Assembly (NCBI GenBank): GCA_041550235.1 | Contig: JBFEPE010000003.1 | Location: 1,199 to 65,198 of the forward strand | DNA length: 64,000 bases | Reading direction: 5' to 3' | DNA from: Minisyncoccia bacterium | GTDB taxonomy: Bacteria > Patescibacteriota > Minisyncoccia > UBA6257 > JAAZHW01 | Shown here: positions 27,041-49,448 of the stretch, piece after piece | Layout of the letters: each line of letters opens with the position of its first letter | Position numbering within the stretch: the stretch's first letter is position 1 | Translations under genes and position numbers: made by a program | The notes under the pieces: model-generated | Databases searched by the model: none | What the model was told of the DNA's origin: nothing | What the model saw: only the letters and a program-made list of their open reading frames with translations

Positions 27041-27067
27041 AAAATATAATATAATTATAATATAAAT

Positions 27068-27487: not shown

Positions 27488-27505
27488 TAAATAATTTTAT
27501 TTAAT

Positions 27506-32938: not shown

Positions 32939-33372
32939 TCAACAATAATAAGCCGGATTCTGTATCAACAATCATTTATCTATGAATAGTGTCGCCACTA
33001 TTCTATAGCGATCCACCTTTTCGCTTATAAAAAGCGATTTGATCTTGCACCGGATAGGGCTTGCCAGCAATGGCTTATCACTAAGCCCGCATAAGAGTAG
33101 CAATTATGAAAATCACATCTCTTATCTTTTCACCTTTCTCCAGCCCCACTTTTATTTCTAAAAGTGGGGCTGGGTAGTATTGTCTCTGTGGCGCTTTCCC
33201 TATCCAGCACCACTTTTATTTCTAAAAGTGGTGCTGGGCGGTTGGTGTTACCAACTATCCATTTTCCAATATTTATATTTAATAATAAAATAATAAATAT
33301 TTTGGGTGTCCGGACTTTCCTCTTCTTATGTTGCCGAAGCAATATAAGAAGCGATTGCTTTTGCCGAATTGC
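32936..33372 (-). ncRNA. rnpB: RNase P RNA (bacterial type)
   Basis: Minus-strand sense carries the P4 motif 'GAGGAAAGUCCGGACACC' (plus strand 33303-33320), the 3' P4 motif 'ACAGAAUCCGGCUUA' (plus strand 32948-32962), a P3 hairpin, P1/P2 pairing, and two duplicated hairpins with a compensatory C-G to A-U change. Confidence 0.75.
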
Positions 33373-33978: not shown

Positions 33979-34809
33979 ATGATAAACATTTTCAAAAATA
34001 AGAAAGCCACTTCATTTATAATTCTCTCAATTGCATTGATAATAGCAATTATTTTGATATCTAATGGTGGGGAAGAGGTGGTGATTGGAATAAATAGCGA
34101 TATAAAAAACGACCAAGAAAATAAAGCAAGCGGTTTCCAATTAGAAAGAGATGGAGAAAAATTAGGAATAATTGGAGTGAACGATTTGTCTCAATACTTA
34201 ACTACTCAATCAAAAAAAAGAAACCTCACAAGAGACTTGGCCGATAAATTATCGCTTGGTTTTGTTGAGGCAAATGAATTTAATGAAGACCCATCGCAAG
34301 GTGTTTTCACTCCTGACGGTTATAGCATAATATCCACCTCATTAGAAGACTACAGCAATGAGTTTGGTTTGAAAAAAGACTTCATTACAATAAAAGATTT
34401 AAATATTGGGGGGGATAATTCTCAAGAAGCAATTCTTTCATATTATACTCAATATAGAGATACCATAAGTGAAGAAGTTGATAAGTTGGATATTTTAAAT
34501 AGATTAAATAAATTCAATGAGAGCAAGAATTTAAGTTATATTTTTGATATAATAGATGGGTATGATTCATTAATTTCAAAAATGAAAAAAATAAAAGTTC
34601 CAAGTGATTTTATAGAACTTCATTTGGAAAATATAAATTTATATATTTCTCAAAAATCTATTTTTGGCTCATTGGCTCAAATCAATGATGACCCATTAAG
34701 GTCTCTCACTGCAATAAATTTATTAGAAGAAACAGAAGATAAGTTGAGTGATTTGGGATTGGAATTTGCTTCTGCTCTTGAAAAAAATGGATTTAAAATT
34801 ATTTATTAA
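33979..34809 (+). CDS. Hypothetical membrane-anchored protein (276 aa); first gene of the T4SS-like cluster
   Basis: N-terminal TM helix; no motif. Confidence 0.45.
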   Translation: MINIFKNKKATSFIILSIALIIAIILISNGGEEVVIGINSDIKNDQENKASGFQLERDGEKLGIIGVNDLSQYLTTQSKKRNLTRDLADKLSLGFVEANEFNEDPSQGVFTPDGYSIISTSLEDYSNEFGLKKDFITIKDLNIGGDNSQEAILSYYTQYRDTISEEVDKLDILNRLNKFNESKNLSYIFDIIDGYDSLISKMKKIKVPSDFIELHLENINLYISQKSIFGSLAQINDDPLRSLTAINLLEETEDKLSDLGLEFASALEKNGFKIIY

Positions 34810-34814
34810 ATAAT

Positions 34815-36389
34815 ATGCCATTCAAAAGAACAATTTTGCTATTCATTATTTTCACATTCGTATTTCAGGGAGTGGGAATGTCCTTTGTTTTTAAAAAAGC
34901 TCAGGCAGGCTTGCCGGTCTCAGTTATTGCATATAGCCCCTTAGCTATGGGCATAAAGGCGGTTGCTGATAAGGCAACACAAACATTCATTAAAAAAGTA
35001 GTAGAAACTTTAATAGAAATCGCGAAAGAATATTTAAGAATAAGATTATTGGATTATCTCGTTGGGCAAACAGTGGCATGGATAAATAATGGTTTTAGAG
35101 GTGGTCCATATTTTGTTACAAATTGGAAGGATTTTTTATTAGAGGCAGGAGTTAATGCAGTGGGAGATTATCTTTCTCAAAGCAAGTATAAGAGAATTTG
35201 TTCGCCCTTTAACTATGATATTAGATTGAATTTGGGTGGCTTTCAGCAAATGCCTTCAACAGCTTGCACATTGGATTGGGTAGTGAATGACATTGAAAGA
35301 TATTGGGGCGATAGAGGATTTTTTGAGGGCGGATTGGCTGCTTTTGGAGAATCTCTTAAAATGCAAAATAATATATATGGTGCAAATATGATAGCCGAAA
35401 AAGAGATGGAGATGGAAGTATTGAGAGAAATAACACTCAAAGAAGCATTTGGCTCGCAGGCTGGTTTTCAAAATACAAGAAGATGTATTGAGGCAGTCAA
35501 AGATCCCGATACTGGGAAGTCAAAATGCTTAAAGTGGCAAATCACTACTCCCGGAGGAGTAATTGCTGGAAAACTTCAAAAGGCATTGAATGTTGATATT
35601 GATAAAATTCTTAGTGCAGATGAATTTACCACTTATGCAGCTGCAATTATAGATGCTCTAATAAACCAACTGATAAAGGCAGGAATGAATGGATTATTTG
35701 GTTTGGCTGATGGCGGAGGGTCGGCTGACCCCGGCGACATCCCCGACCTTCCTCCATTGCTCTATGTTTGTAATAAAACTGCATTTGTTTGCAGACCAGT
35801 ATTTGAGGACGATAATATGTTAGAGGGGGTTAGAGAAACATATAGTACTGCTGATGAGTGTAATGAAAAATGTGTTGATGATACTGACCCAGATGAAGGG
35901 GGCAAAAAGACATATAATGACAACCTACTTGCTTGTGAGAAAGGAATATTTGTGAGAGCAAGACCGCCATCAGGTTGTGCTGATGGAATCTGTAATAGAT
36001 GCACTGGCATTGGAGGAGTATATGCATCTGAATCATGCTTTGTTTTCTGCAAGCACACAAAAGATGCAGAATGGAAATCAGGGGCAAATAATGGAAAACA
36101 ATTTAGCGAGGAAGAAGTAAATTCTGTTACTAATTTCTTTGGGTTGTCATCGCCAGCAGGTGGTTGTTTTTGCCAAACAGAAATAGGGGAGTATCCATTT
36201 TATGATTATGATGGAGTGGGGCATTTTAAATCATCATGTCTTGAATGCAATGACGAGACATTATTTGGGGCAAGATTGTGTAGAAGCACAACTTGGTGCA
36301 AGTATCAATTAAATCAATCTCCATCGCCTTCTCCAAGTCCATCGCCTTCTCCACCTCCATTGCCATCCCCATCCCCACCCGTGTTCTAA
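34815..36389 (+). CDS. Hypothetical secreted Cys-rich protein with a C-terminal (SP)n linker
   Basis: Signal/TM N-terminus, many Cys in the C-terminal third, 'SPSPSPSPSPSPPPLPSPSPP' tail. Confidence 0.5.
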   Translation: MPFKRTILLFIIFTFVFQGVGMSFVFKKAQAGLPVSVIAYSPLAMGIKAVADKATQTFIKKVVETLIEIAKEYLRIRLLDYLVGQTVAWINNGFRGGPYFVTNWKDFLLEAGVNAVGDYLSQSKYKRICSPFNYDIRLNLGGFQQMPSTACTLDWVVNDIERYWGDRGFFEGGLAAFGESLKMQNNIYGANMIAEKEMEMEVLREITLKEAFGSQAGFQNTRRCIEAVKDPDTGKSKCLKWQITTPGGVIAGKLQKALNVDIDKILSADEFTTYAAAIIDALINQLIKAGMNGLFGLADGGGSADPGDIPDLPPLLYVCNKTAFVCRPVFEDDNMLEGVRETYSTADECNEKCVDDTDPDEGGKKTYNDNLLACEKGIFVRARPPSGCADGICNRCTGIGGVYASESCFVFCKHTKDAEWKSGANNGKQFSEEEVNSVTNFFGLSSPAGGCFCQTEIGEYPFYDYDGVGHFKSSCLECNDETLFGARLCRSTTWCKYQLNQSPSPSPSPSPSPPPLPSPSPPVF

Positions 36390-36395
36390 TATATA

Positions 36396-36472
36396 ATACC
36401 CGCCTTCGTTAAAACTTCGGCGGGCGAAACCCGCCTTCACTCTAAAGAGTTTCGGCGAGGCGAAGTAAAAAA
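36396..36472 (+). promoter_or_regulatory. GC-rich structured leader upstream of the VirB6-like gene ('cccgccttcgttaaaacttcggcgggcgaaa...tttcggcgaggcgaag')
   Basis: Shares the 'cgccttcgNNNaaacttcggcg(g/a)gcgaag' box with the leaders at 43458-43500, 46792-46822 and 47449-47485. Confidence 0.5.
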
Positions 36473-39049
36473 ATGAATAATGTCGCTAAAAAAATTAAAG
36501 AATTTTTGAAAAAAACAATTTTAAACCGAAAAACAAAATTGGGTGTTTTTTCGGGGATTGCTTTAAATTCCTGTTTGATTATTAAGGCAAAAGCAGGTGT
36601 GATGTCTGCGATAGGAACGATAGGCACAGAAGTAGCTTCGTTGATTGGCTCATTAATTCTCCCTATAGGTAAATGGGTTATAAGTGAGGCAGTAAAGGGT
36701 ATTATTGCATTAGTTCAACTTATTGTCGGGCAATTAATTGCATTAGAAATTAATCTTCTATCGTGGGTAATAAGTATACAAAACTTTACAACACTTCCGA
36801 TAGTGAGATTGGGATGGAGAATCACAAGAGATTTTTCAAATATTCTCTTCATAGCAGTTTTAATATATCTTGCTTTTGCAATAATATTAAGAGTTCAAAA
36901 TTACAATGCCAGCAGTATGCTTTGGAAGGTAATTGTAATGGCAGTTCTAATAAACTTTAGCTTGATGATAGGAGGAGTTATCATTGACATAAGTCAAGTA
37001 TTTTTCTTTTACTTCTTAAGAGCTCCTTTTGGTGACAAAGTGGAATATAATCCCGCTAATACTGGGTTGGCAATTGGTGACCGATTGCAATTAAATAAGA
37101 TATTGGCGAATGATCAATCACTGGCAGGCTCAACTGGGGGAGGAGAAGAATCAAAACAAAATAGAGAACTTGGTTTGGTCGGAAGGGCTGTATTTGTCGT
37201 CATATTCTCATTTGTTTATGCATTAGTCCTCGGGGCATTAGTTCTCATTCTATTTGTTAGAAATCTTTATTTATGGATACTTCTTATTTTCTCTCCAATT
37301 GCATGGGTTGCACAGGTTATTCCAATCAAACAAATTAGTGGATTCTTTAATCAATGGTGGAGTGAATTTATGAAATGGGTTTTCGTAGCACCAATAATTG
37401 CCTTCTTTATATTCTTATCGCTTTACACGACAGAAGTAATAGATGATTTTGGAAAAGAAAGCACAAATAAAATATTAGTGGATAATTTTTATGATGATGA
37501 GAAGGCAGCTGAAAAAACAGAGCATTCAAGTCTATTTTTTGGAAGAGCACAAACGAATATATTTGGATTACATATTTTTACAAACTCTTTCTTTGTTGTA
37601 ATTTTCTTGTTGGTTGGAATGAAGGTTACTCAATCAATGGGATTTAAAATCGCTGGCTCCGCCCTGAATCTTGCCGGCCAAGCAAGAAAAATGGCGACTG
37701 ATTATGCATGGAAAAAGACAAAAGAAACTGGCAGAAGAGTTACCCAAACTGGCGCTCGTCTCTTATCGGAGGGGACAGGTATTGCAACAAGATTTATAGT
37801 TCCTGAAAAGTGGCGGACAGGACTTGGCAAATTTGTTGGTGGTGCATCAAAAGTTCCTATTGTTGGAGCTCCCTTTAAGGCAATGACAAGGGGAATTGAG
37901 AAATTATCAGCAGGTGCTCCTAAGATGAGAGAGAGTTTAGTAAAGCAGGGTGAAGAAAGAATGAAGAATATGTCAAATGATCAAATAAAGAGGAAGTTGG
38001 AATTAGGGCAATTTGATAGATATGAAAAAATTGCCGCTCAAAGAAAAATAGGTGTTGCAAATGAAAAACATTTCAAAGATTTGCAGGGTATTTATAAGGC
38101 AAATAATATGCAAGATGATTTGGCTAATCTAAAGAAAGAAAATCCTTATTGGACAGATGAATTTAAGAATTTAGCGAAAGGATATGATGATATTAAGAAG
38201 AATAGATTGGATACAAAAGCAGGTAGCGAATTGGCTAAGAAGCAAATTAGCGATGAGGAAAGAGCGATTATGAAGGCAGATCCAAAATGGAGCGATCAAG
38301 ACATATTGGCAGAATCATATAAGAGAGCTCTTGCTAATCAATTTAAGGGATTTGATGCAGATAAGATGGCTATTAATTTTGAAAAAGATGAGGCATTTAA
38401 GAATCCAGATTCTATTTCAAATCAGGCATTAGCAGTTGTTGCCTCAAAACAAAAATATGGCAGATTTGCCGACAAGGTAATTGATAAGATGAGTCCAAGT
38501 CAAGCAGGTAAGTTGATGAAGAATGTGGTTGAGGAACTTGGAGGTGGTCAAAAGGGTGTGAGTGCCGCAAATACATTGGGTTATGGTGGTTTGGGTAATG
38601 ATAAGCCAAAAGGTGGAGATTTTTCACCTGGTCTTGTTTTGACTGAAAGCACATTGAGAGATATTGCAAATGATTTGGGAGTCAAATCACCCGAACCTCA
38701 GCCAGAAGATAGAACTTCTCAATATCAAGAGGAATACAAGGAGGTAAAAGAACCATTCCAACCACCACCAGTAAAAACCCCAACTCCTCCACCAACAGGC
38801 GGCCCTACCCCAACCCCAACCCCATCTCCCGGGCAGCAAATGCCTCCGCCTCTTGATACAGCAGAATTAAAAAAGATTGAATTTGATAATATAGCTGAAA
38901 GAACGGCAAATCAAGGCAAGATAATAAACAAAGATTTGTTATACAAATTAATGGATAAGGGTGTCACCGCGAGTGATATAGAAAATAATAGATTAACATT
39001 GGAAGATGGACCATTTAATGAATGGGCAGAAAGAAAATTGAATGAATGA
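36473..39049 (+). CDS. Polytopic membrane protein, candidate VirB6/TrbL-like T4SS channel component, with a large Pro/Thr-rich hydrophilic C-terminal domain
   Basis: At least six predicted TM helices in the N-terminal 400 aa, a long charged C-terminus and a PTPPPTGGPTPTPTPSP linker; assignment by architecture only. Confidence 0.35.
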   Translation: MNNVAKKIKEFLKKTILNRKTKLGVFSGIALNSCLIIKAKAGVMSAIGTIGTEVASLIGSLILPIGKWVISEAVKGIIALVQLIVGQLIALEINLLSWVISIQNFTTLPIVRLGWRITRDFSNILFIAVLIYLAFAIILRVQNYNASSMLWKVIVMAVLINFSLMIGGVIIDISQVFFFYFLRAPFGDKVEYNPANTGLAIGDRLQLNKILANDQSLAGSTGGGEESKQNRELGLVGRAVFVVIFSFVYALVLGALVLILFVRNLYLWILLIFSPIAWVAQVIPIKQISGFFNQWWSEFMKWVFVAPIIAFFIFLSLYTTEVIDDFGKESTNKILVDNFYDDEKAAEKTEHSSLFFGRAQTNIFGLHIFTNSFFVVIFLLVGMKVTQSMGFKIAGSALNLAGQARKMATDYAWKKTKETGRRVTQTGARLLSEGTGIATRFIVPEKWRTGLGKFVGGASKVPIVGAPFKAMTRGIEKLSAGAPKMRESLVKQGEERMKNMSNDQIKRKLELGQFDRYEKIAAQRKIGVANEKHFKDLQGIYKANNMQDDLANLKKENPYWTDEFKNLAKGYDDIKKNRLDTKAGSELAKKQISDEERAIMKADPKWSDQDILAESYKRALANQFKGFDADKMAINFEKDEAFKNPDSISNQALAVVASKQKYGRFADKVIDKMSPSQAGKLMKNVVEELGGGQKGVSAANTLGYGGLGNDKPKGGDFSPGLVLTESTLRDIANDLGVKSPEPQPEDRTSQYQEEYKEVKEPFQPPPVKTPTPPPTGGPTPTPTPSPGQQMPPPLDTAELKKIEFDNIAERTANQGKIINKDLLYKLMDKGVTASDIENNRLTLEDGPFNEWAERKLNE

Positions 39050-39121
39050 TGAAATAAAAAAACAGAGTGTTTTGAAATTTCAAAACACTCTGTTTGATTA
39101 TAATAAAATTTATAATTTTTC

Positions 39122-40081
39122 TTACTTTTTTTTGAGATCGATCATTCCAGACAAATCAGCAACATATTGAAGTGGGTTTTGTGTAATCAGCGTATTGCCA
39201 TTCTCTGCGAAAGTATTGAGAATTCCTTGATTATCTTGATACCTGACGATTCCAAGGGCTTCTTTAAATGTGATTTTGAACTCTTCCATGAGGGATTTTA
39301 TCGTCTTTTCAACCGCCTTAATTTCTTCCTCTTCTCCTATTCTTTTTGCTTCGGCTTTCTCTTTAGCGACTTCTTTTTCTTTTTTTGCTTTTTCTATAGC
39401 AGTATAAGAAGCAAGAAGTGTTGGGTCTTCTGGTTCAATATTTAGTATTTTACAAACCACATCCTGTCCAAATTTTTCATCAAGGTGATTTTCAATCATC
39501 CTTGATAACTCCATCGTATCTTTAGATTTCAAATTAATCCATGTCCCATTTTCTCTAGCGAGACTTCTTATTCCCCCTTCTATTGTAAATAATAGTGTGG
39601 CATCTGGGTTATCTGTTTTGTAGGTAAAATTTCGCACATTTGATATTAGATTTTCCTTGTTTGTGCCATGAATTTGAGTCTCAATTAGCATATCAAATTT
39701 TAATGGGACATTATCTTCGCAAATTATGTCATTATAGGTCTTTGGAAAAACTTTTTTCATGAGATTGATTTCATATTTACCTAATTTCTTCACTTTTTTC
39801 TCAAGGGGGAACCATATAAAATGGGGTCCTTTTGTCAGAATCCTGGAATCTCTACCTAGAAATTGAGTAGCGACTGCTGTTTTCTCCTCAACTATCAGAA
39901 AGGCTTTTTTCAAGTAGAAGAAGGTGATTATAAGGGTTATAACTATTGAAGCAGGGAGAACAACCGATGGAAGTGGGATGAGGGACATTATCAGAAAAAG
40001 AATCAACCAAAAAACAAAAACTGCCGCAAAACCAATCAATAAATTTTTTGCTTTTCCAAATAAAGCTTTTAGAATATCCAT
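39122..40081 (-). CDS. SPFH/band-7 (stomatin/prohibitin-like) membrane protein
   Basis: N-terminal TMs, 'TKGPHFIWFP', and a C-terminal 'AKEKAEAKRIGEEEE' coiled-coil typical of HflK/C-like proteins. Confidence 0.65.
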   Translation of the reverse strand: MDILKALFGKAKNLLIGFAAVFVFWLILFLIMSLIPLPSVVLPASIVITLIITFFYLKKAFLIVEEKTAVATQFLGRDSRILTKGPHFIWFPLEKKVKKLGKYEINLMKKVFPKTYNDIICEDNVPLKFDMLIETQIHGTNKENLISNVRNFTYKTDNPDATLLFTIEGGIRSLARENGTWINLKSKDTMELSRMIENHLDEKFGQDVVCKILNIEPEDPTLLASYTAIEKAKKEKEVAKEKAEAKRIGEEEEIKAVEKTIKSLMEEFKITFKEALGIVRYQDNQGILNTFAENGNTLITQNPLQYVADLSGMIDLKKK

Positions 40082-40236
40082 TTTAATTTCTCCTTTTTTA
40101 ATCTATATTTATTTTTTAATTCTCACCGTAATTGGCTGGGTGTATTATATCACAAATAAAGAATTTGTCAATATTGATTATATTTTATAAGTTATAATGT
40201 TTGTATTGATATATTTTTCAAGAGTGAGAAGGAGAG

Positions 40237-40267
40237 ACTACCCCGCCCCTTCGGGGCGGGGTAGTCA
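40237..40267. repeat. GC palindrome 'gactaccccgccccttcggggcggggtagtc'
   Basis: Perfect inverted repeat. Confidence 0.8.
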
Positions 40268-40309
40268 AGAATTTTAAATAAAAAATGTGAGGTATAATAT
40301 AATAAATAT

Positions 40310-40579
40310 ATGACTTTATTTCAAAAATACATTCAAGCAGCCCTTCATAAGGCAAAATATAAAATAGATAAAGAAAAAAATGTCTACATTGCCTTTGTTG
40401 AGGAATTGCCAATTTGTTGGGGACAAGGAGCGACTTATGAGGATGCGAGACAAGAATTAGCCAATGTTATTGAAGGTTGGGTTCTTTTGGGTATTCAACA
40501 AGGCGACACTATCCCCCCAATCGGCGGAATTAATTTAGAGAGTATTCTTCATCCCAAGAATCAAGTTCAATATGCCTAA
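40310..40579 (+). CDS. HicB-like antitoxin (second pair)
   Basis: 'VYIAFVEELPICWGQGATYEDARQELANVIEGWV...GDTIPP' matches the HicB fold pattern. Confidence 0.6.
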   Translation: MTLFQKYIQAALHKAKYKIDKEKNVYIAFVEELPICWGQGATYEDARQELANVIEGWVLLGIQQGDTIPPIGGINLESILHPKNQVQYA

Positions 40580-40796
40580 ACTAACCCCTCTATCAAGAAA
40601 GGAATTTATTAAGAAACTTAAGGGCTTTGGGTTGCAAGGTCCTTTTCAAGGGGGAGATCATCAATTTATGTGTAATAAAAATTGTAGAATAAAAGTTCCC
40701 AATTCTCACAGCAAAAAAGATATTCCTATTTTTATTATTCAATTAACTATAAGGCAATTAGGCAAATCAAAAGATGAGTGGATAAATAAAAAATAG
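40572..40796 (+). CDS. HicA-like toxin (second pair)
   Basis: 8-nt overlap with the upstream ORF; 'KLKGFGLQGPFQGGDHQFM...KVPNSHSKKDIP' resembles YcfA/HicA. Confidence 0.55.
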   Translation: MPKLTPLSRKEFIKKLKGFGLQGPFQGGDHQFMCNKNCRIKVPNSHSKKDIPIFIIQLTIRQLGKSKDEWINKK

Positions 40797-40821
40797 GGTA
40801 TAATGTTTATATAGCAAAAAT

Positions 40822-41871
40822 ATGTTGGCAACAATTCCCACAAAAGAAAATATAATAAAAATAATGGAGGGGCTATCTCCTGAATTAAGGCAGACAATAT
40901 CAAGCCGTGAAACAGCTAAGGATATTGAAAATGCCGTCTTAATGCATAAAGTTCCAACAGAAAAAATAAAGGGACTAGTATCATCAGTCGGCTATGTTTT
41001 GCTCGGATTATATAATCACGAAGAATTTACAAAAGATTTATCTAAAGACTTAGGAATAGATCCGCTAATTGCAAGAGATTTAGCAATAGATATTGATAGA
41101 AGCATTTTTTTGCCTATTCGTGATGAAATAAAAAAAGCCCATAAGATTTTCAAAGAAGGCGGAATCAAGAAAGTTGAAAAAGTTGAAGGAATAAAAAAGA
41201 TAGAAGAAATTAAAAAAGAAACAATAATTCCAAAAGAGGAAGAAGAAAAGAAAGAAGAGGAGAAAAAATTTGAAGAAAAGAAATTTGAGAAAAAAATATT
41301 TCCAAAAAGTTTTGCTCCCAAAAAAATTGGCCCAATGGTAGATATAAAGAAGAAGGAAGAAGTCCGAAAAGAATTTAAGCCAATTTCAATTAGAGGAGAA
41401 GAAGCAAAAGTAAAGCCAACACTACAAACAAAATCTCCAATTTCAAGTGTATTTGAGCAAGTAGAAAAAAAGAAAGAAGAAGTAGTTTCAAGATTAGAAA
41501 TAAAGAAGGACGAGCCAACTAAAATAGTTAATTTTACTGCTGATAATTTATCCCCACCTCCACAAATTGAGAAAAAACCGGGGGCAGTAGAAAAAACGAC
41601 TATTCCATCGCCAAAAGAAATGGCAGATGAAGGATTGATGATGGAGAAAAAACTGGAAATGGCAGGAAAAATAATGGAAAAAAAAGTAGGGGGAATAATA
41701 GTGGAGAAAAAAGAAAAAGAAGAAAAAAAGATTGAGACAATGGCAGAAAAAGAAAAAGAAGTAGGGAAAATGGTAATTGAGAAAAAAGAAGAATTAGAGA
41801 CAAAGGCAATAGCAGAAGAAAAAACAAAAGAAAAAGAAAATATAATAAATCTAAAAAAATTAAAGTTTTAA
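40822..41871 (+). CDS. Hypothetical K/E-rich protein (349 aa)
   Basis: Structured N-terminal ~110 aa followed by low-complexity KE repeats. Confidence 0.45.
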   Translation: MLATIPTKENIIKIMEGLSPELRQTISSRETAKDIENAVLMHKVPTEKIKGLVSSVGYVLLGLYNHEEFTKDLSKDLGIDPLIARDLAIDIDRSIFLPIRDEIKKAHKIFKEGGIKKVEKVEGIKKIEEIKKETIIPKEEEEKKEEEKKFEEKKFEKKIFPKSFAPKKIGPMVDIKKKEEVRKEFKPISIRGEEAKVKPTLQTKSPISSVFEQVEKKKEEVVSRLEIKKDEPTKIVNFTADNLSPPPQIEKKPGAVEKTTIPSPKEMADEGLMMEKKLEMAGKIMEKKVGGIIVEKKEKEEKKIETMAEKEKEVGKMVIEKKEELETKAIAEEKTKEKENIINLKKLKF

Positions 41872-41872
41872 T

Positions 41873-42268
41873 ATGCCAACATTCCAAGTGCCACAATTTA
41901 TTGATATAGAGGATAAGATTATCGGGCCTCTCTCATTGAGACAATTTATAATTTTAGCAATAACTGGGGGCTTGCTATTTGCTTTATTTAAAATTTTTCA
42001 ATTTTGGTTGTTCTTTATTTTTGGAGGAATAATTGCGGCATTAGGAATGTCGTTGGCATTTGTGAAGATAAATGGGCAAAGATTTGATAAGGTTGCATTG
42101 AATGCTTTGAGATATTTTATCTCTCCGCGACTCTATGTTTGGAGAAGACCAGAAAAAAGTAAGCAATTATCAGTTGCTCCAAAGATAGAAGTAAAGAAAA
42201 AGGTTGAGGAGCAGAAGAGAATGACTCTTGAGCAATTAGAGGAATTTGCCAAAAAATTGGATAAATAG
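41873..42268 (+). CDS. VirB3/PrgI-like small two-TM protein
   Basis: 'FQVPQFIDIEDKIIGPLSLRQFIILAITGGLLF' resembles the PrgI-family N-terminal motif; lies directly upstream of VirB4-related ORFs. Confidence 0.4.
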   Translation: MPTFQVPQFIDIEDKIIGPLSLRQFIILAITGGLLFALFKIFQFWLFFIFGGIIAALGMSLAFVKINGQRFDKVALNALRYFISPRLYVWRRPEKSKQLSVAPKIEVKKKVEEQKRMTLEQLEEFAKKLDK

Positions 42269-42276
42269 CAACAAAT

Positions 42277-42936: not shown

Positions 42937-42940
42937 TAAA

Positions 42941-42976
42941 AAGGGGCAGGGTGTTTTTTCACCCGCCCTTTTCGGC
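42941..42976. terminator. Bidirectional terminator (gggcagggtg...cacccgccc flanked by A- and T-runs)
   Basis: 'aaaaggggcagggtgttttttcacccgcccttttcgg'. Confidence 0.6.
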
Positions 42977-42981
42977 AATAA

Positions 42982-43302
42982 CTAAAATTTTACCACGGCC
43001 GCAAGTACTGATTTCCCGTTATTAAAATCTTCGGGAGTTCCCCAATTGAGCCAGTTTCGAAAATTAATTTCTACAAGCCCTTTAGTAGGGGTAGGAATAC
43101 TATAATCCGTTTTTGGTTTGCAATTCAAGGTGCTACCGTTATTACTCTTGAGCAGAATGTTTTTTACAAATATCCCATCTCGGAATGACACTTCTTTAAT
43201 AGTCCAACCAAGATGAATAACCTCGTCTGAGTCCACAAATTCAATAGTCATTTCCTTGTTTATTCTAGCATTTGAATAAAGATCTCTTTTTTTTCTAGTC
43301 AT
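42982..43302 (-). CDS. Hypothetical protein (106 aa) inserted between the two VirB4 parts
   Basis: Strong RBS 'aataggaggaataaata' before the ATG; divergent from the promoter module. Confidence 0.45.
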   Translation of the reverse strand: MTRKKRDLYSNARINKEMTIEFVDSDEVIHLGWTIKEVSFRDGIFVKNILLKSNNGSTLNCKPKTDYSIPTPTKGLVEINFRNWLNWGTPEDFNNGKSVLAAVVKF

Positions 43303-43388
43303 TATTTATTCCTCCTATTTTTTTAATTTTTAACATCTTAACGGAAACTCAACCATCAAATTTCCCGCCAACATTATATCACAAATAA

Positions 43389-43445
43389 ATATATTTGTCA
43401 ATAGTGGGGGTTGGGTTTGACTTATAATAGTATTAATGAACATCC
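43389..43445 (+). promoter_or_regulatory. Conserved promoter-like element, copy 1 ('tgtcaatagtgggggttgggtttgacttataatag')
   Basis: Near-identical to 46727-46793; contains TATAAT at 43423-43428. Confidence 0.55.
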
Positions 43446-43579
43446 TGTCTTCGTCGACCCGCCTTCGCTAAAGCTACGGCAGGGCAGGGGACTTCGGCGG
43501 GCAAAGGAGAAACACCCCGTCCCGCCAAGAGACGAGCCACCCCTCTATAAGAGGGGAATAAGAAATAAGATAAAAAAAT
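43446..43579 (+). promoter_or_regulatory. Structured GC-rich 5' leader of virB4 with the motif 'ggagaaacaccccgtccc-hairpin-ccacccctctataagagggg'
   Basis: The motif recurs at 46826-46880 and 47383-47448. Confidence 0.5.
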
Positions 43580-45394: not shown

Positions 45395-45474
45395 ATTTTT
45401 TGTTTTTGATTTTTTTTGAAATAAAAAAACAGCATTTGAGGATTTCTCCCCAAATGCTTTCTAATTTTTATACT

Positions 45475-46647
45475 TCATCCCATTCTGTTTTCTTCAATAA
45501 ACTGCTTTATTTTTTCGGAATGCGAGCATCTTAAATAATGTCTTATTCTTCTTGCGATTCTAGTTATTCCAATATCCTTATCTTCATCCTCATCTCCCCC
45601 TCCAGTCATCTCTTTTCCTTTCACTTCTCTTATCATTCCATCAAGATAAGAATTAGATGCCTCTTTTGATTGAATTTGCTCAAGTCGTTCAATCGTGATT
45701 TCATTTTCATCTATAAATCTTTCCATCAAATCTCGGAATGCCCACTGCTCTTTCAAGTCATTACTTGGCTCAAAGCCAAACCAAGAAATAAGATTTTCTT
45801 CCTCTGTAGAAACTCGTCCTTGATTGATCAATCCCTGCAGGTTTTCTCTTGTGAAGCCAAATTCCCCAACTTTTAACAAAAATTCAGGCGAATTTTCAAA
45901 AGGGAAGACCTTTAAAATGCTATCCCAAAATCTGTCTAGGTAGCAATCGCTAAAAGAATTTTCCCCAACAAGATATTTAAGGTTTTTTTCAAGCACTTCT
46001 GCCATTTCAAATAGAGAAAGATAAATTTTCTTTATTCCCTCAAAAATTGTTTGGCTATTTGATTTTTTCCATAATTTCCACAAGCCATCAATATAATGAC
46101 TCATTGAATGTGCCCAGTAAAAATATCTTTTTTCTTCCAATGCAAAAGCACTTAAAGCTATTTCTATTCCGCGAGAAACACATTCAACATCACCGTTTTT
46201 AAGGGCTGCCTCTAGTGAATTCATTTGCAAATAATTTTTTTTCGATGCCTCCTTCGCCCCATAGATATACCCACCAAGTTTTGCAAATCCTTTTCTTAGA
46301 TTTTGTTCTTTAAGAATAGTCAAAAACTTTTCAATATCTTTACTCGCCTGATAGTGAAAGCGGACTCTTGTTTCGGGAAAAAGATTGGGATCGCCAGAGT
46401 TATCAATCCAAACATAGTCATCAAAATTAAATCCTTTTTTTCTAAGACTCGCAATGACTTCGCTTCCGCAGACCATCCCCAAAAAAAATCCAATCAGAAT
46501 AATCTCAATGTTGTTTTCTTTTAAGAAATCAACAACCTCATCATCTGTCTTCGGGGTTAATGCAAATGTTTGGTGTCCAAGATTTTTGGCAACCTCTCTT
46601 TGTTTTTCGGTTTCATTCAGAAACCAATCAATCCATACGATATTCAT
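45475..46647 (-). CDS. Hypothetical protein (390 aa)
   Basis: RBS 'aataggaggaataaa' before the ATG; divergent from promoter module copy 2. Confidence 0.5.
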   Translation of the reverse strand: MNIVWIDWFLNETEKQREVAKNLGHQTFALTPKTDDEVVDFLKENNIEIILIGFFLGMVCGSEVIASLRKKGFNFDDYVWIDNSGDPNLFPETRVRFHYQASKDIEKFLTILKEQNLRKGFAKLGGYIYGAKEASKKNYLQMNSLEAALKNGDVECVSRGIEIALSAFALEEKRYFYWAHSMSHYIDGLWKLWKKSNSQTIFEGIKKIYLSLFEMAEVLEKNLKYLVGENSFSDCYLDRFWDSILKVFPFENSPEFLLKVGEFGFTRENLQGLINQGRVSTEEENLISWFGFEPSNDLKEQWAFRDLMERFIDENEITIERLEQIQSKEASNSYLDGMIREVKGKEMTGGGDEDEDKDIGITRIARRIRHYLRCSHSEKIKQFIEENRMG

Positions 46648-46726
46648 TTTATTCCTCCTATTCGTTTTATTTTATTATTTTATTTTTAAACATCAGGAAA
46701 TCTGACTTTCCTGATAGTATGATGTA

Positions 46727-46793
46727 ATATATTTATAAAAATGTCAATAGTAGGGGTTGGGTTTGATTTATAATGGTAAGGATGAACACCCCG
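46727..46793 (+). promoter_or_regulatory. Conserved promoter-like element, copy 2 ('tgtcaatagtaggggttgggtttgatttataatgg')
   Basis: TATAAT at 46769-46774. Confidence 0.55.
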
Positions 46794-47490
46794 CCTTCGT
46801 CGAGACTTCGGCGGGCGAAGGAGAAAACACCCCGTCCCGCCTGAGGCGGACCACCCTTCTATTAGAGGGTGGCACATCCGCCTTTGGCGGAGAATTATAA
46901 GACAAGATTAACAACTCCCAAAGAAAATCAAAATTTCGAATATATAGAGAGTAAATAGAAACAAATTAAGGAATGGGGAGCGATGATCTATATATTCAAA
47001 TGTTTGAGTTTTGCCGATTTTCAAATAGAGGCAAAACGAGTTCTTTCCAGCCAGAGGCGGATCCGCCTATGGCGGAGAATTGATCATCGCGGAGACAAGA
47101 AATAAATTGCAAAGCAATTTCTTTCTTGGCGGGAATGGATATAATTTGTCTATTTACGAACGAAATAGAGAAATTTTAGATTTTTTGGGGAGATAGAGAT
47201 TCCCCGCCGAAGGCGGGCAGGCCGCCGGAGTATTATCCGCCTCTGGCGGACGGGAATGAAAAGAAAGGACGGGCATGACAAGAAAAAAGTGGGGATAATC
47301 TAAATTGTAGCAATAATATAATGGTGGTATAATATAATCAAAGAAAATATCTCCCCGCTTTCGCGGGGATGACGACAAAGAAGGGGAGAAACACCCCGTC
47401 CCAGCCCCTGCGGACAGGGGCTGGACCACCCCTCTATAAGAGGGGAATTATACTCGCCTTCGTTGAAACTTCGGCGAGGCGAAGAAAAAT
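46794..47490 (+). other. ~700-nt non-coding GC-hairpin-dense region; candidate long structured leader or ncRNA
   Basis: No credible ORF; ORF-track hits here are Pro/Arg-rich translations of hairpins; contains the leader motif twice, the 61-bp repeat and the 'aaaatcaaaatttcgaatat' box. Confidence 0.45.
47198..47258 (+). repeat. ~61-bp composite two-hairpin repeat, direct copy
   Basis: 'gattccccgccgaaggcgggcaggccgccggagtattatccgcctctggcggacgggaatga'. Confidence 0.8.
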
Positions 47491-47952
47491 ATGGCGGAGG
47501 AGACAAAAACAAAAATTGAAAAACCATTACAAGTTCCACAGAGAAAACCTCAAATACCAACAGGCGGAGCGAGAACCATTAGACCAAAACTATCAAGATT
47601 CTTGCCGGTTGGAAGAAAAAGAGAGGGAGCATCTCAAAAAGAATCAGGAACAATAGGGAAAATAACAAAAAAGGGGACATTAATAATGGGAACTTTGATT
47701 TTTTTGCCAATTATTCTTTTGGCTGATGTAGTTGATATCTTTACATTAGCAGGTCCAGTATTAATAGTTTCATGGATATTAGATATATTATCCTTTGTTT
47801 TCCCAGCCGTATTTCTTTTGATTGCCAACAAAGGACAGGGGATTATGAGATACGGGATGGCATGCTTTGCCGAAGGAATACCAGTCGTAGAATGGGGGAC
47901 ATGGAGAATAATAGTTCTATTGATGATAATTTTTAGCTCAAAAAGCACCTAA
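47491..47952 (+). CDS. Hypothetical small membrane protein (2-3 TM helices)
   Basis: Hydrophobic C-terminal half; preceded by the leader box 'ctcgccttcgttgaaacttcggcgaggcgaag'; start uncertain. Confidence 0.4.
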   Translation: MAEETKTKIEKPLQVPQRKPQIPTGGARTIRPKLSRFLPVGRKREGASQKESGTIGKITKKGTLIMGTLIFLPIILLADVVDIFTLAGPVLIVSWILDILSFVFPAVFLLIANKGQGIMRYGMACFAEGIPVVEWGTWRIIVLLMIIFSSKST

Positions 47953-47964
47953 TCAATAATTAAT

Positions 47965-48681
47965 ATGAAAAATCATTTTATAAAATCAATATTTTTTATA
48001 TCAATTATAATATTTGCTGGATTTTTAATAACAAATATCGCTACCGCTCAAAATGGCTCCGGTTTTTTTCATCTCTCTTGGGAGGCAGACAGCAAGGCAC
48101 CAGTTGAATATTCAGGCAAGAAATTAGCAACTATGAACTCCGTCATAAAGGCAAGTATTCAAGCATTTGTTTATTCTGGCGGAGTATATTTAAATCCATC
48201 CAATTGGAATTTTAAGTGGTATTTAAATGATGAATTAATAAGCGAAGGGGCAGGGATGATTGATTTTAGATTTCGTATAGAAAATTATTTATCAGATTCA
48301 TACAATGTGAGGGTTGAGATAATTTTTCCAAACGGCTCATCATCAAGTGAGGAAATAGAAATACCAATTGTTCAGCCAAAAGTTTTAATATGGCCAGATA
48401 ATGGAGATTTTACCATCAAAGAAAACTCACTTTATACAACATCAAATGAAGTGATTTTAATGACTCAAGCATATTTTTTCAGTCAAATGGATAATAATTA
48501 TAGGGCTCAATGGTTTATTGATGGGAGGTATCAATTTGTTGAAAGAGGAGAGAATTTATTTGTTGATTTGAGTGAGAAAAAAGAAAGAAATATAAAGGTC
48601 ATTTTAAGCAGTAGCAGTGATTCTCTTATTCGAAATATAGGTGAGTTAAATGTTATTTCAACTGGTGGTGGCGGTCTATAA
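47965..48681 (+). CDS. Hypothetical secreted protein (238 aa)
   Basis: Signal peptide ending '...ITNIATAQ'. Confidence 0.45.
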   Translation: MKNHFIKSIFFISIIIFAGFLITNIATAQNGSGFFHLSWEADSKAPVEYSGKKLATMNSVIKASIQAFVYSGGVYLNPSNWNFKWYLNDELISEGAGMIDFRFRIENYLSDSYNVRVEIIFPNGSSSSEEIEIPIVQPKVLIWPDNGDFTIKENSLYTTSNEVILMTQAYFFSQMDNNYRAQWFIDGRYQFVERGENLFVDLSEKKERNIKVILSSSSDSLIRNIGELNVISTGGGGL

Positions 48682-48696
48682 ATTAATTAAAATCTT

Positions 48697-48726
48697 ATAT
48701 AGCCCCCCGCGAAGGCGGGGGGCTAT
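48697..48726. repeat. GC palindrome 'tatagccccccgcgaaggcggggggctata'
   Basis: Inverted repeat. Confidence 0.75.
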
Positions 48727-48792
48727 AGGGAAAAGTAATAAATAATAAAAAACATCCTGTTTCATAATTAAATGTAAAAAAATATAATACAT

Positions 48793-49440
48793 ATGATTAA
48801 ATTTTGGAAAATTATAATAATATTTATTTTTATCAATATATTGATTCCTTCAAGTTCTGTTTTTGCTAAAACAAATTGTGTCGGTGGTGATTTTCCATTA
48901 GAAATTCCAATTTTTGGATTGGAATGTGTCTCCGGTCCAGCCGCTTATTTATCGGGGCTTTATAAAATATCCTTGGGGGCAGGTGTTTTTATTGCAGCAG
49001 TGATTATTGTTTTTGCCGGAACAAGATATGCGGCTGCAAGAGATAATGTTAATACAAAAAAGGATGCAACTTCGCAAATTTGGAGTGCATTAGGTGGCCT
49101 TGCCCTTCTTTTCGGCTCATTCGTTCTTTTGAATACAATAAACCCCCGCCTGACGGAATTAGAGGATTTAGATATCGGCGGAGATATTTCGGAAAAAGAT
49201 TTAAGAGAGATTTGGTTGAGTCAAAATTGTTATAGGATTAATACACAATATAATAAGGTGTATTGGAATTGTGTTAATAAGTCCACGAAAGATATATTTG
49301 GCTATTTAGATTATACAATCCTTTCCAATAAAATAGATAATGGTTGTGAGCAACAGGCCTTAAATGATTTAAATTCAAGGCATAAAGGAGATGAAAGGAT
49401 ATTAGCGGGCATGTGTCTCAGTAAATATGTTCAATTTTAA
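48793..49440 (+). CDS. Signal peptide plus two-TM protein, candidate VirB2/TrbC-like pilin
   Basis: Signal peptide, then hydrophobic helices 'AGVFIAAVIIVFAG' and 'ALGGLALLFGSFVLL'; architecture only. Confidence 0.3.
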   Translation: MIKFWKIIIIFIFINILIPSSSVFAKTNCVGGDFPLEIPIFGLECVSGPAAYLSGLYKISLGAGVFIAAVIIVFAGTRYAAARDNVNTKKDATSQIWSALGGLALLFGSFVLLNTINPRLTELEDLDIGGDISEKDLREIWLSQNCYRINTQYNKVYWNCVNKSTKDIFGYLDYTILSNKIDNGCEQQALNDLNSRHKGDERILAGMCLSKYVQF

Positions 49441-49448
49441 ATAAAAAT

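Follow-up and report, generated by a model that had tools for sequence, protein, structure and literature searches.

Introduction

Patescibacteria (CPR) are ultra-small, host-dependent bacteria. Quiñonero-Coronel et al. (2025; PMC12102498) described a Patescibacteria clade of type IV secretion systems (T4SS) in which TrsD lies beside virB4, the pilins are VirB2-like, relaxases are missing and the genes occupy a near-origin position. The T4SS is essential for epibiotic growth in Ca. Southlakia epibionticum (Wang et al. 2023, as cited in PMC12102498 and PMC12857230), and Tn-seq in Southlakia found it essential independently of comEC (summarised in PMC12857230). According to a 2026 preprint, tubular structures at a parasite-host interface may be T4SS pili. 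Further described systems are the MPF-FATA monoderm modules (CTn2 CD1110-type, pCF10 Prg, pGO1 Trs and C. perfringens pSXP-169_2), the T4SS of Mycoplasma ICEs, and the solved T4SS channel/stalk subunits R388 TrwI/VirB6 and Legionella DotA.

The T4SS-like cluster analysed here occupies positions 33979-50633 of the window, the 64-kb stretch of DNA under study, in a Paceibacteria chromosome of ~33% GC (Table 1). Like the Patescibacteria-clade systems, it is chromosomal, its VirB4 is related to MPF-FATA, a TrsD-like ORF adjoins virB4, PrgI/VirB3, VirB6 and a VirB2-like pilin lie near virB4, a relaxase is absent, and type IV pilus genes are found in the same genome (PMC12102498). Because a chromosomal, relaxase-less T4SS cluster has already been described as near-universal in Patescibacteria, the cluster is a real but already described kind of system with a few local peculiarities. 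We consider it likely that the block is a vertically inherited chromosomal Patescibacteria-clade T4SS with a Paceibacteria layout, derived from monoderm MPF-FATA conjugation machinery and used for host-contact exchange, not conjugation. The first-pass annotation, made from the sequence alone, had proposed a type IV system that does not serve conjugation, in an organism with a reduced genome and type IV pili; the chromosomal setting, synteny, the lack of a relaxase or coupling protein (T4CP) nearby and the published clade (PMC12102498) support this reading.

Table 1. Features of the cluster, its insertions and its leaders, in window coordinates
Feature	Position	Strand	Basis
276-aa protein, N-terminal membrane anchor, first conserved cluster gene	33979..34809	+	TM, synteny
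524-aa secreted Cys-rich protein	34815..36389	+	signal/TM, 20 Cys, synteny
GC-rich hairpin leader 5' of VirB6-like gene	36390..36472	+	repeat family D9
VirB6/TrbL-like polytopic channel protein, 858 aa ('extended VirB6'), predicted	36473..39049	+	fold, hydrophobic segments
SPFH/Band-7-like membrane protein, local insertion	39122..40081	-	PF01145
HicB-like (UPF0150)/HicA toxin-antitoxin pair, local insertion	40310..40796	+	PF21748, PF07927
349-aa protein, conserved gene directly 5' of PrgI	40822..41871	+	synteny
PrgI/VirB3-like protein, two-TM hairpin	41873..42268	+	PF12666
TrsD-like protein, N-terminal domain of VirB4 as its own ORF, 219 aa	42277..42936	+	NF041427
643-bp insert between trsD-like and virB4	42937..43579	.	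sequence
Terminator-like hairpin in 643-bp insert	about 42938-42972		
106-aa ORF in 643-bp insert	42982-43302	-	
Divergent promoter block in 643-bp insert	43361-43457		
GC-rich leader in 643-bp insert	43458-43558		
VirB4 ATPase, middle and C-terminal P-loop domains, 604 aa	43580..45394	+	NF045971, PF19044
390-aa ORF, strain-variable cargo	45475..46647	-	comparison with strain L001
Repeat-rich intergenic region, second divergent promoter/leader copy and other window-wide repeats	46648..47490	.	
GC-rich leader 5' of 153-aa gene	47343-47486		
153-aa membrane protein, conserved gene next after virB4	47491..47952	+	TM, synteny
238-aa secreted protein	47965..48681	+	signal/TM, synteny
VirB2-like T4SS pilin, 215 aa	48793..49440	+	signal peptide and two TM, weak pilin HMM matches
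394-aa protein, last conserved cluster gene	49449..50633	+	TM, TolB match

Conservation and chromosomal setting of the cluster

We compared the cluster with the loci of 80 related species, retained out of at least 575 confirmed genomic matches. The results showed that eleven genes are syntenic, with gene set and order kept across these loci: 276-aa, 524-aa, VirB6-like, 349-aa, PrgI/VirB3, TrsD-like, VirB4, 153-aa, 238-aa, pilin-like and TolB-like. All ORFs named in the first-pass annotation were present where it had placed them, and the PrgI/VirB3, CD1110-type VirB4 and divergent T4SS_pilin/VirB2-like protein inside the block bear out its T4SS-like cluster. Its end point at 49440 was too early; the conserved cluster extends to 50633, and the 394-aa gene therefore belongs to it. 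Six of the eleven conserved genes encode uncharacterised secreted, membrane or low-complexity proteins that correspond to no known T4SS component, and neither a VirB8-like nor a VirB1-like protein was identified.

Housekeeping genes lie on either side of the cluster in the window, and ksgA, yidC, rnpA, dnaA and dnaN flank it in the relatives. Unlike the Patescibacteria-clade T4SS and those loci of other species that extend far enough downstream, the cluster in this genome does not adjoin dnaA/dnaN; its distance from a terminus-like GC-skew switch is ~8-24 kb. This location away from the origin is a minor new point.

The queries in the search for relaxase and coupling protein genes came from an actual conjugation module of Clostridium perfringens, in which relaxase, MobC, VirD4 and SLT all lie beside PrgI-VirB4. 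Neither the window (E<=1) nor the 80 related loci (E<=1e-3, up to ±10 kb from virB4 where contigs reach) yielded a relaxase, MobC, VirD4/T4CP or SLT homologue, in agreement with the earlier report of a cluster lacking relaxase and VirD4. The only Walker-A proteins in the 64-kb window were MiaA, two PilB-like ATPases and VirB4. Since VirD4-like genes occur elsewhere in most Patescibacteria genomes (PMC12102498), the absence of a coupling protein can be claimed for the window but not for the whole genome; a T4CP or relaxase may lie elsewhere in it. Compared with the MPF-FATA modules, DUF3801 and topoisomerase III were also not found here, alongside MobC, relaxase, VirD4 (CD1115) and the SLT hydrolase, and this cluster is a conserved part of the chromosome and not of mobile DNA.

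An ordinary integrated conjugative element or remnant, with its relaxase and coupling protein just beyond the window, would fit the CD1110 type of VirB4, known from monoderm plasmids and ICEs, the PrgI-VirB4 adjacency shared with the C. perfringens module, a tyrosine recombinase gene at 62817-63740, and the TA pairs and variable cargo inside the block. However, the same eleven-gene order recurs at a fixed place beside ksgA and yidC-rnpA-dnaA-dnaN in dozens of species, a relaxase/T4CP homologue was found within ±10 kb, as far as contigs reach, in 0 of the 80 loci, GC content showed no island signature, and the recombinase is XerC/D-like and 12 kb off, with housekeeping genes between. VirB4 was 58-79% identical to other-species Paceibacteria homologues among the matches listed, whereas identity to the best plasmid VirB4s, whose hosts are all monoderm, was only 28-35%. 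We regard a conjugative element as very unlikely.

The PrgI, TrsD-like and VirB4 core

The VirB4 ORF scored above the cutoff of NCBIfam NF045971 ('VirB4-like conjugal transfer ATPase, CD1110 family'; 355.8 bits, cutoff 325, 4.6e-106), covering model positions 185-728 of 752. It also matched Pfam P-loop_TraG (PF19044, 8e-32) and contained Walker A (AKSGSGKS, nt 44351-44374) and Walker B (ILIIDE, nt 44969-44986) motifs. The VirB4 with both Walker motifs thus stands as first annotated, but not as a single complete ORF, the N-terminal domain being encoded separately at 42277-42936. This TrsD-like ORF matched NF041427 (TrsD) at 1.2e-9, under the curated cutoff, and aligned with positions 103-235 of NF045975 (2e-13) and positions 5-176 of TIGR00929 VirB4 (1e-6). 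The two-TM PrgI/VirB3-like protein, proposed earlier as such, provided a T4SS family match besides VirB4, above the PF12666 cutoff (40.8 bits, cutoff 27; 3.4e-10); it covers positions 28-121 of NF045975, a model of fused VirB3-VirB4, and was found in 77 of the 80 loci. The three proteins are co-linear with fused VirB3-VirB4 models and with a 783-aa plasmid VirB4.

The Mycoplasma ICE T4SS shows a similar order: PrgI, TrsD-like and VirB4 map one after another onto its fused Mbov_0397 (VirB3-VirB4) model, and the top NCBIfam match of the 215-aa protein was the Mbov_0395 pilin-like family; however, all these matches are under curated cutoffs, three separate ORFs here stand against one fusion there, and the ICE context is absent. 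The MPF-FATA modules share with this cluster a PrgI immediately 5' of a VirB4 of the CD1110 family, the presence of a VirB6-type channel protein and the absence of an outer-membrane core, although VirB4 identity is only ~30%. The TrsD + TrsE style split of VirB4 resembles pGO1, while the VirB2-like pilin is lacking in Gram-positive systems.

A VirB4 divided over two ORFs that are separated by 643 bp and a gene on the opposite strand, together with the interruptions by SPFH, HicAB and the 390-aa ORF, could also point to a decaying, non-functional cluster with a broken VirB4 and a disrupted operon. However, the TrsD-like ORF was found in 78 of the 80 loci and was fused to VirB4 in three of them; in the other 75 VirB4 is divided at the position seen here, a split that corresponds to the known TrsD + TrsE arrangement (PMC12102498). 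Moreover, all eleven conserved ORFs are intact, four of the five cluster proteins shared with the sister strain are 98-100% identical (amino acids), and a promoter-like element lies 5' of every interrupted unit. Decay is very unlikely.

Channel, pilin and accessory proteins

The 858-aa protein has ~7 hydrophobic segments and a long, hydrophilic, coiled, Pro/Thr-rich C-terminal half, and is predicted to be VirB6-like by fold; segments, tail and fold all match the first description of a polytopic VirB6-like protein with a Pro/Thr tail. Its identity to R388 TrwI/VirB6 and DotA was 8-13%, and unlike them it has an additional hydrophilic C-terminal half of ~450 aa that includes a Pro/Thr-rich segment; a VirB5 partner was not identified here.

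In 46 of the 80 loci an orthologue of the 276-aa gene precedes the 524-aa gene, and in 49 a 524-aa orthologue lies immediately upstream of the VirB6-like gene. The 276-aa protein has a single TM segment (residues 10-28) and no match in Pfam or PDB; TSP3-like Ca-binding repeats occurred in 20 of 47 relatives and not in the window copy. The 524-aa protein (20 Cys) carries a signal or TM segment at 7-25, a conserved N-terminal ~300 aa, a variable Cys-rich tail and a PS-rich C-terminus, with no match in Pfam, NCBIfam or PDB and a pLDDT of only 35 in its AF2 model. In the 349-aa protein (66/80 loci), a conserved N-terminal ~110 aa is followed by K/E-rich low-complexity sequence, with no TM segment and no Pfam or PDB match.

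Unlike in the Patescibacteria-clade T4SS, a peptidase or lysozyme is not directly 3' of virB4. The 153-aa protein found there (orthologues in 36-44 of the 80 loci) has a basic N-terminus, then hydrophobic segments, and no family match in Pfam or NCBIfam. The 238-aa protein (74/80 loci; signal or TM segment at 5-23) probably consists of Ig-like beta-sandwich repeats: its family profile weakly matched the Ig-like Hoc (3shs, E 0.007), and Ig_3, PKD, BiPBP_C and MG4 gave scattered matches among the scanned accessory-protein orthologues, probably the 238-aa ones. The 394-aa protein (56/80 loci) combines an N-terminal membrane anchor (TM segment 6-24) with a TolB-like beta-propeller, its family profile matching TolB structures (7mx5_A, 3.1e-6, plus 11 more).

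The signal peptide and two TM helices seen earlier in the pilin-like protein were recovered in its core (residues 1-~126), which continues into a hypervariable C-terminal domain of ~90 aa that contains four Cys. Pilin HMM matches of the window copy were weak (NF045849, 5.3e-5; PF18895, 0.048; both under curated cutoffs). In a mixed set containing 29 orthologues, PF18895 was matched by 29 members (best 2.3e-11) and TrbC by 3, so that all or nearly all of the 29 scanned orthologues appear to match PF18895. Against the PDB, the only non-low-complexity matches of the family profile were to A. tumefaciens VirB2, and these were not significant. Close relatives keep the core but differ in the tail. 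In contrast to the Patescibacteria-clade T4SS, the pilin bears this variable domain, predicted to be cysteine-paired, which is a minor new feature, and one pilin gene is present here versus an array of six in Southlakia.

Proposed mechanism and function

In the proposed mechanism, PrgI would anchor a VirB4 hexamer (TrsD-like N-domain plus ATPase chain) at the cytoplasmic membrane, with the VirB6-like protein as the membrane channel. The VirB2-like pilin would leave the cytoplasm through Sec, be cut after ...SVFA, be pulled out of the membrane by VirB4 and assemble into a tube or pilus that displays the variable, disulphide-bonded C-terminal domain on its outside. Spanning or remodelling of the wall, or binding of the host, may fall to the secreted Cys-rich, Ig-like and TolB-like proteins. 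The system would serve contact-dependent exchange with the host cell carrying the epibiont, by effector delivery and/or uptake of host macromolecules. We infer this function, and not conjugation, by analogy with the distantly related Saccharimonadia.

Of the two functions suggested at first, host-cell interaction is favoured and DNA uptake less so. A type IV system for competence, comparable to Helicobacter ComB or archaeal Ced, would take in DNA or nucleotides from the host or the environment that the cell cannot make. It would suit the reduced genome, the lack of a relaxase/T4CP nearby, the adjacency of T4SS genes to comF, recG and radA in class ABY1 (PMC12102498), and the weak, sub-threshold matches of VirB4 to the DNA-import ATPase models CedB (1.3e-9) and CedD (6.5e-5). 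However, the CD1110 conjugative-type model scored far better, and no ComEC or ComEA-type gene was found in the cluster. According to PMC12857230, comEC deletion in Southlakia abolished competence and left viability intact, though the T4SS is essential; its essential role is therefore not natural transformation. DNA uptake is thus improbable, and exchange on host contact remains the preferred function.

Local insertions and GC-rich leaders

Interruptions by SPFH, HicAB and two orphan ORFs set the cluster apart from the Patescibacteria-clade T4SS. SPFH, HicB, HicA and the 106-aa and 390-aa minus-strand ORFs were ruled out as parts of the system, as they are not conserved. These five genes interrupt the cluster, which is split into at least four transcription units in this genome, and coordinated expression is therefore uncertain. 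The SPFH-like protein scored 23.4 bits against PF01145 (cutoff 23.6), had no homologue among the 80 related loci, and its gene has its own perfect promoter (40171..40144). The HicB-like/HicA pair (PF21748, 1.5e-19; PF07927, 5e-6) was likewise not found in these loci, nor was the 390-aa ORF, which had no family match and whose position is occupied by other genes in sister strain L001. The 106-aa ORF had no match in Pfam or PADLOC. The trsD-virB4 gap is usually <~130 nt in relatives and reaches ~450-590 nt in 8 loci; this insertion hotspot is a further minor new observation.

The insertions bring their own promoters and GC-rich repeat 'leaders'. A perfect minus-strand promoter lies at 43401..43373 in the 643-bp insert, and the block 43361-43555 (divergent promoter and leader) is repeated at 46707-46869, within a second promoter/leader copy at 46707-46875. 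The leader of the VirB6-like gene is one copy of the CCCGCCTTCG...CTTCGGCGGGCGAA repeat (RNA fold z = -3.2). The shared GC-rich leaders first described are real repeats, the motif GAGAAACACCCCGTCCC occurring in 3 copies versus 0.01 expected, but they are strain-variable and do not indicate co-regulation: the leader 5' of the 153-aa gene is missing in L001 (92-97% identical), where the promoter abuts the ATG. The GC-rich leaders are mobile repeats, not conserved regulators. CCGCC-N3-GGCGG hairpins occur in 26 copies in intergenic DNA throughout the window, beyond the cluster too.

VirB4 is encoded by two adjacent ORFs

The 604-aa ATPase ORF of the cluster matched P-loop_TraG (8e-32) and, as its best NCBIfam model, the equivalog "VirB4-like conjugal transfer ATPase, CD1110 family" (355.8 bits, cutoff 325). 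Both the Walker A (AKSGSGKS) and Walker B (ILIIDE) motifs were present, bearing out the bona fide VirB4 of the first-pass annotation. The CD1110 model was matched by this ORF only from model position 185 on, and the N-terminal domain was found in a separate preceding ORF of 219 aa, so the ATPase stands but a single-ORF VirB4 does not. The 219-aa ORF matched TrsD (1.2e-9), TIGR00929 VirB4 (positions 5-176) and, at 2e-13, positions 103-235 of a model of a mycoplasma VirB3-VirB4 fusion. The PrgI/VirB3-like ORF scored above its Pfam cutoff, as expected from the first-pass annotation, and aligned weakly to positions 28-121 of the fused model. Since the three ORFs align along this model, they are co-linear with a VirB3-VirB4 fusion. 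In a 783-aa plasmid VirB4 of C. perfringens, residues 184-754 aligned to the ATPase ORF and residues 22-128 weakly to the TrsD-like ORF. The coordinates of all features are collected in the table below.

We searched the VirB4 query against one genome per GTDB species and obtained at least 575 confirmed relatives. The best 80 of these were all Patescibacteria, mostly Paceibacteria/Parcubacteria, with identities of 57-100%, and the VirB4 protein of the sister strain (locus L001) was 100% identical to that of the window. The best plasmid matches came exclusively from monoderm hosts, at 28-35% identity. These models and identities, taken over the best 80 of at least 575 relatives, suggest that the protein is related to MPF-FATA VirB4 and closest to the VirB4s of Patescibacteria.

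In the 80 related loci (DNA up to ±10 kb of virB4), a TrsD-like gene adjoined virB4 in 78, as it does in the window, where PrgI/VirB3 and VirB6-like membrane components also lie near virB4. The split was at the identical point in 75 of these 78 loci, and the two genes were fused in three (L014, L019 and L031). We considered a disrupted gene or intron-like insertion as the cause of the two-ORF structure and rejected it, since the split is kept in 75/78 relatives and equals the known TrsD plus VirB4 arrangement. The common split point indicates an ancestral arrangement and not damage, and the natural fusions confirm that both ORFs belong to a single functional unit.

Coordinates of features in the window
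Feature	Position	Strand	Remark
HicB/HicA	12381-12848		toxin-antitoxin pair
Prepilin-like protein	22238-23845
PilB-type ATPase	25343-27040
Nucleotidyltransferase gene	27055-27498
Nucleotidyltransferase/HepT pair	27068-27946		MNT-HEPN
RNase P RNA	32932-33370	minus	Rfam match, upstream of cluster
T4SS-like cluster	33979-50633
VirB6-like, 858 aa	36473-39049
SPFH	39122-40081	minus	no counterpart in 80 loci
HicB/HicA	40310-40796		toxin-antitoxin pair within cluster; no counterpart in 80 loci
PrgI/VirB3	41873-42268
TrsD-like, 219 aa	42277-42936
106-aa ORF	42982-43302	minus	no counterpart in 80 loci
Promoter block, first copy	43361-43555		about 190 nt
VirB4, 604 aa	43580-45394
390-aa ORF	45475-46647	minus	no counterpart in 80 loci
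Promoter block, second copy	46707-46869
GC-rich element	47343-47486		absent from sister strain
Pilin-like, 215 aa	48793-49440
HD-domain protein	51920-52699		PF24391 HD-CE, 4e-8
PilB-type ATPase	60486-62207	minus
XerC/D-like recombinase	62817-63740		downstream of cluster

Gene order and accessory proteins of the cluster

The 80 loci were searched by tblastn and iterated HMM. The results revealed a single conserved gene order in these loci, with the following occupancies out of 80, many of the contigs being truncated: 276 aa (46), 524 aa (49), VirB6-like (at least 51), 349 aa (66), PrgI (77), TrsD-like (78), VirB4 (80), 153 aa (36), 238 aa (74), pilin-like (64) and 394 aa (56). Because the 394-aa gene belongs to this order, the cluster ends at 50633 and not at 49440, as first annotated; its start is unchanged.

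Six of the eleven core proteins were without a known T4SS counterpart and may supply the wall-spanning or host-binding parts that are missing. The 394-aa family is a membrane-anchored TolB-like beta-propeller (PDB profile match 3.1e-6), the 238-aa family looks Ig-like, and TSP3 calcium-binding repeats were frequent in relatives of the 276-aa protein. The searches placed neither the 524-aa nor the 349-aa nor the 153-aa family. When profiles of the 276-aa, 524-aa and 349-aa families were run against PDB sequences, no match was significant, and an AF2 model of the Cys-rich 524-aa protein, built from 6 sequences, reached a mean pLDDT of 35, with no usable fold.

The VirB6-like and pilin-like proteins

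Pfam scans gave no direct match for the 858-aa protein, and its family profile retrieved coiled-coil noise only from PDB sequences. The protein is polytopic, with about seven hydrophobic segments, and VirB6-like by fold, it has a weak precomputed TrbL_3 match, and one homologue matched TrbL at 1.2e-4. These results agree with the VirB6/TrbL-like architecture originally ascribed to it.

In the 215-aa protein, a signal peptide precedes two hydrophobic helices that form a hairpin of the VirB2/TrbC type (hydrophobic segments 7-25, 59-77 and 95-113). Its matches to the Mbov_0395 pilin-like family (5.3e-5) and T4SS_pilin PF18895 (0.048; 14.2 bits against 26.6) were sub-threshold. In a scan of 118 orthologues of four families plus the window pilin, 29 members matched PF18895 (best 2.3e-11), the same number as the pilin orthologues included (n=29), the matches being a count over the set and not a member-by-member list. 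Three members of this mixed set matched TrbC/VirB2. The pilin family alignment showed a conserved core, ...GG..Y....K...I..A..GL....S.LIL.TINP.L, ending in TINPxL, a motif common to the window protein. Together, the sub-threshold matches and the motif shared with the orthologues point to a putative VirB2-like pilin (PF18895/PF04956) near virB4, consistent with the pilin-like label of the first-pass annotation. Against PDB sequences, the pilin profile matched A. tumefaciens VirB2 with E values of 1.8 and 6.6, neither of them significant.

The mature protein, of about 190 aa, is larger than a small mature pilin of about 70-100 aa. Core residues 1-126 were nearly invariant among close relatives, whereas the C-terminal ~90 aa were strongly divergent with four cysteines retained; between the window and the sister strain, the pilin was 78% identical and the neighbouring proteins 98-100%. 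Among 53 orthologues, the C-terminal extension had a median length of 173 aa and reached at least 60 aa in 47, and its cysteine count was even in 53/53, being zero in 14. Such extensions are not discussed by Quiñonero-Coronel et al. 2025 (PMC12102498).

DNA-transfer functions and chromosomal setting

No relaxase or coupling-protein domain was detected by Pfam in any window ORF, and the Walker-A proteins of the window were MiaA, the two PilB-like ATPases and VirB4 only, with no extra P-loop ATPase. As a positive control, a C. perfringens plasmid module was fetched via VirB4, and it showed the order MobC, relaxase, DUF3801, VirD4 (CD1115), two small ORFs, PrgI, VirB4 (CD1110) and SLT hydrolase. 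Of its proteins, VirB4 alone gave significant matches in the window and the 80 loci; tblastn with the relaxase, MobC and CD1115 VirD4 gave no match in either. Thus, neither the relaxase nor the type IV coupling protein of conjugative MPF-FATA systems was found within the window and the 80 loci, as the first-pass annotation had noted for the window.

The window is chromosomal DNA with a GC content of about 33%. Genes for SecA, MurJ, aminoacyl-tRNA synthetases, NusB, RpoD, YebC, RuvC and S16 lie upstream of the cluster, together with RNase P RNA, and genes for GatB, an M23 peptidase and an XerC/D-like recombinase lie downstream. Where the flanking DNA sufficed in loci of other species, ksgA typically lies on one side of the cluster and jag-yidC-rnpA-dnaA-dnaN on the other. 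In this genome the cluster is not beside dnaA, and is placed between RNase P RNA/S16 and gatB. Cumulative GC skew peaked at ~58 kb, where gene orientation switches from plus to minus, a terminus-like signature 8-24 kb from the cluster. No compositional island was seen, and the origin-proximal context was constant in relatives, a constancy incompatible with a mobile element. The housekeeping flanks, the synteny and the lack of an associated relaxase or coupling protein in the window and the 80 loci indicate a chromosomal, vertically inherited system and support the earlier non-conjugative reading; conjugation is an unlikely function. The type IV pilus locus annotated earlier was also recovered, as two PilB-type ATPases and a prepilin-like protein. 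Between the cluster and gatB lie the HD-domain gene and several small orphan ORFs, which are not conserved beside the cluster in relatives.

Relation to the published system and proposed working

VirB4 has been reported in 2,417 of 3,035 Patescibacteria genomes, and 2,425 of 2,474 VirB4 homologues formed a monophyletic clade nested in MPF-FATA (PMC12102498). The same study described TrsD homologues in Patescibacteria (1,664 adjoining virB4), PrgI/VirB3, VirB6 and VirB2-like pilins near virB4, an almost complete absence of relaxases, VirD4-like genes mostly distant from virB4, and Paceibacteria T4SS near dnaA, dnaN, rnpA and ksgA. The present locus is one further member of this system, and its first interpretation is essentially the published one. 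It represents no new kind of system; it is a clean, well-delimited Paceibacteria example with a defined eleven-gene core.

This T4SS is one of few molecular handles on the host-dependent life of a very large bacterial diversity, and is reportedly the first T4SS that its own carrier was shown to need for survival. According to a FEMS review (PMC12857230), Wang et al. 2023 found that the T4SS and pilin array of Ca. Southlakia epibionticum, a host-dependent Patescibacteria, are essential for growth on its host, and that deletion of comEC abolished competence with viability retained; a need for this system in epibiotic growth is known for Southlakia only. DNA uptake is a possible function of the present cluster, but is disfavoured by these genetics. 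Tubular structures at the host interface, which may be T4SS pili, are described in a 2026 preprint on a different cultivated bacterium that depends on a host; the preprint proposes host RNA as the food of the parasite.

We infer that PrgI would tether the VirB4 assembly (TrsD-like domain plus ATPase) to the membrane and that the extended VirB6-like protein would form the channel. The pilin would be exported by Sec and built into a tube by VirB4, and secreted and anchored accessory proteins might span the wall or attach to the host. A more speculative idea, which we consider less likely than not, is that the Paceibacteria pilin is a pilin-adhesin fusion and that, with six lineage-specific conserved proteins, it makes a new wall-spanning apparatus and not a trimmed conjugation machine. 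Under such a fusion, the conserved VirB2-like core would build the tube, and the C-terminal domain, fast-evolving and disulphide-bonded, would cover its outer surface and set host specificity; the six proteins would be those of 276, 524, 349, 153 and 238 aa and the TolB-like 394-aa protein. The variable domain is a place where host specificity might reside.

Local insertions and variable cargo

The SPFH gene, the HicB/HicA pair within the cluster, and the 106-aa and 390-aa ORFs were absent from all 80 loci and are thus local insertions. PADLOC gave no credible defence-system match for the SPFH, 106-aa, 390-aa, 160-aa and HD-domain ORFs and two small ORFs. In the sister strain (92-97% nt identity), the stretch from virB4 to the 153-aa gene carries different cargo (window 45395-47490 versus 1780-2920 in L001): another minus-strand ORF replaces the 390-aa ORF, accompanied by a 93% copy of the window nucleotidyltransferase gene.

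In eight relatives, the trsD/virB4 gap measured 450-590 nt, and in seven of them (L008, L009, L024, L032, L053, L067 and L074) it held an ORF on the plus strand, about 120-140 aa long. Read by eye, this ORF is a candidate four-helix-bundle protein similar to the 23S rRNA intervening-sequence family. The trsD/virB4 gap of locus L013 held a GxxExxY-like ORF, and the candidate four-helix-bundle family also occurred between PrgI and trsD in other loci. ORFs at these two junctions in several loci indicate recurrent insertion sites. The tolerance of the cluster for insertions and its origin-distant position bear on the proposed gene-dosage explanation of its usual location.

GC-rich leaders and repeats

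The promoter block within the cluster is present in two copies and contains a divergent promoter. On the minus side of the first copy, a perfect TTGACA-17-TATAAT promoter, preceded by TG, lies at 43401..43373. The minus-strand promoters face the 106-aa ORF in the first copy and the 390-aa ORF in the second, and it looks as if a portable promoter block arrives with or beside cargo genes. The plus side enters a GC-rich element, GAGAAACACCCCGTCCC-hairpin-CCACCCCTCTATAAGAGGGG, with three copies (43507, 46822 and 47386) against 0.01 expected. The leader hairpins fold stably (z -2.5 to -8.3), and a shorter hairpin repeat lies ahead of the VirB6-like gene.

The first-pass annotation had placed several cluster genes behind shared GC-rich leaders. 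The repeats are real, but a shared cis-regulatory RNA was set aside: one copy is missing from the sister strain, where the promoter directly adjoins the ATG of the 153-aa gene; the leader motif was not found in any of the 80 loci; and 26 related CCGCC-N3-GGCGG hairpins are scattered over the window. These three observations argue against a conserved regulatory role. Rfam searches (gathering thresholds, and E<=1) gave no RNA family for the leaders, RNase P RNA being the sole match. We read the leaders as small mobile GC-rich repeats. All but one of the 26 hairpins (for example at 3058, 16464, 20154, 22097, 33478, 47204, 54748 and 57203) are intergenic, often with a UACG/UUCG loop and flanking C/G runs, and they resemble a REP-like or terminator-like repeat family spread over the genome.

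For this species and its close relatives, public contigs with the VirB6-like gene or virB4 are broken off precisely at the gene ends. The VirB6-like homologues P0002 and P0003 lie on 2.7-kb contigs (a Logan contig for the window protein), L081 is a further case, and the L001 contig begins 54 nt into virB4. Such ends fit assembly breaks caused by multi-copy GC-rich repeats.
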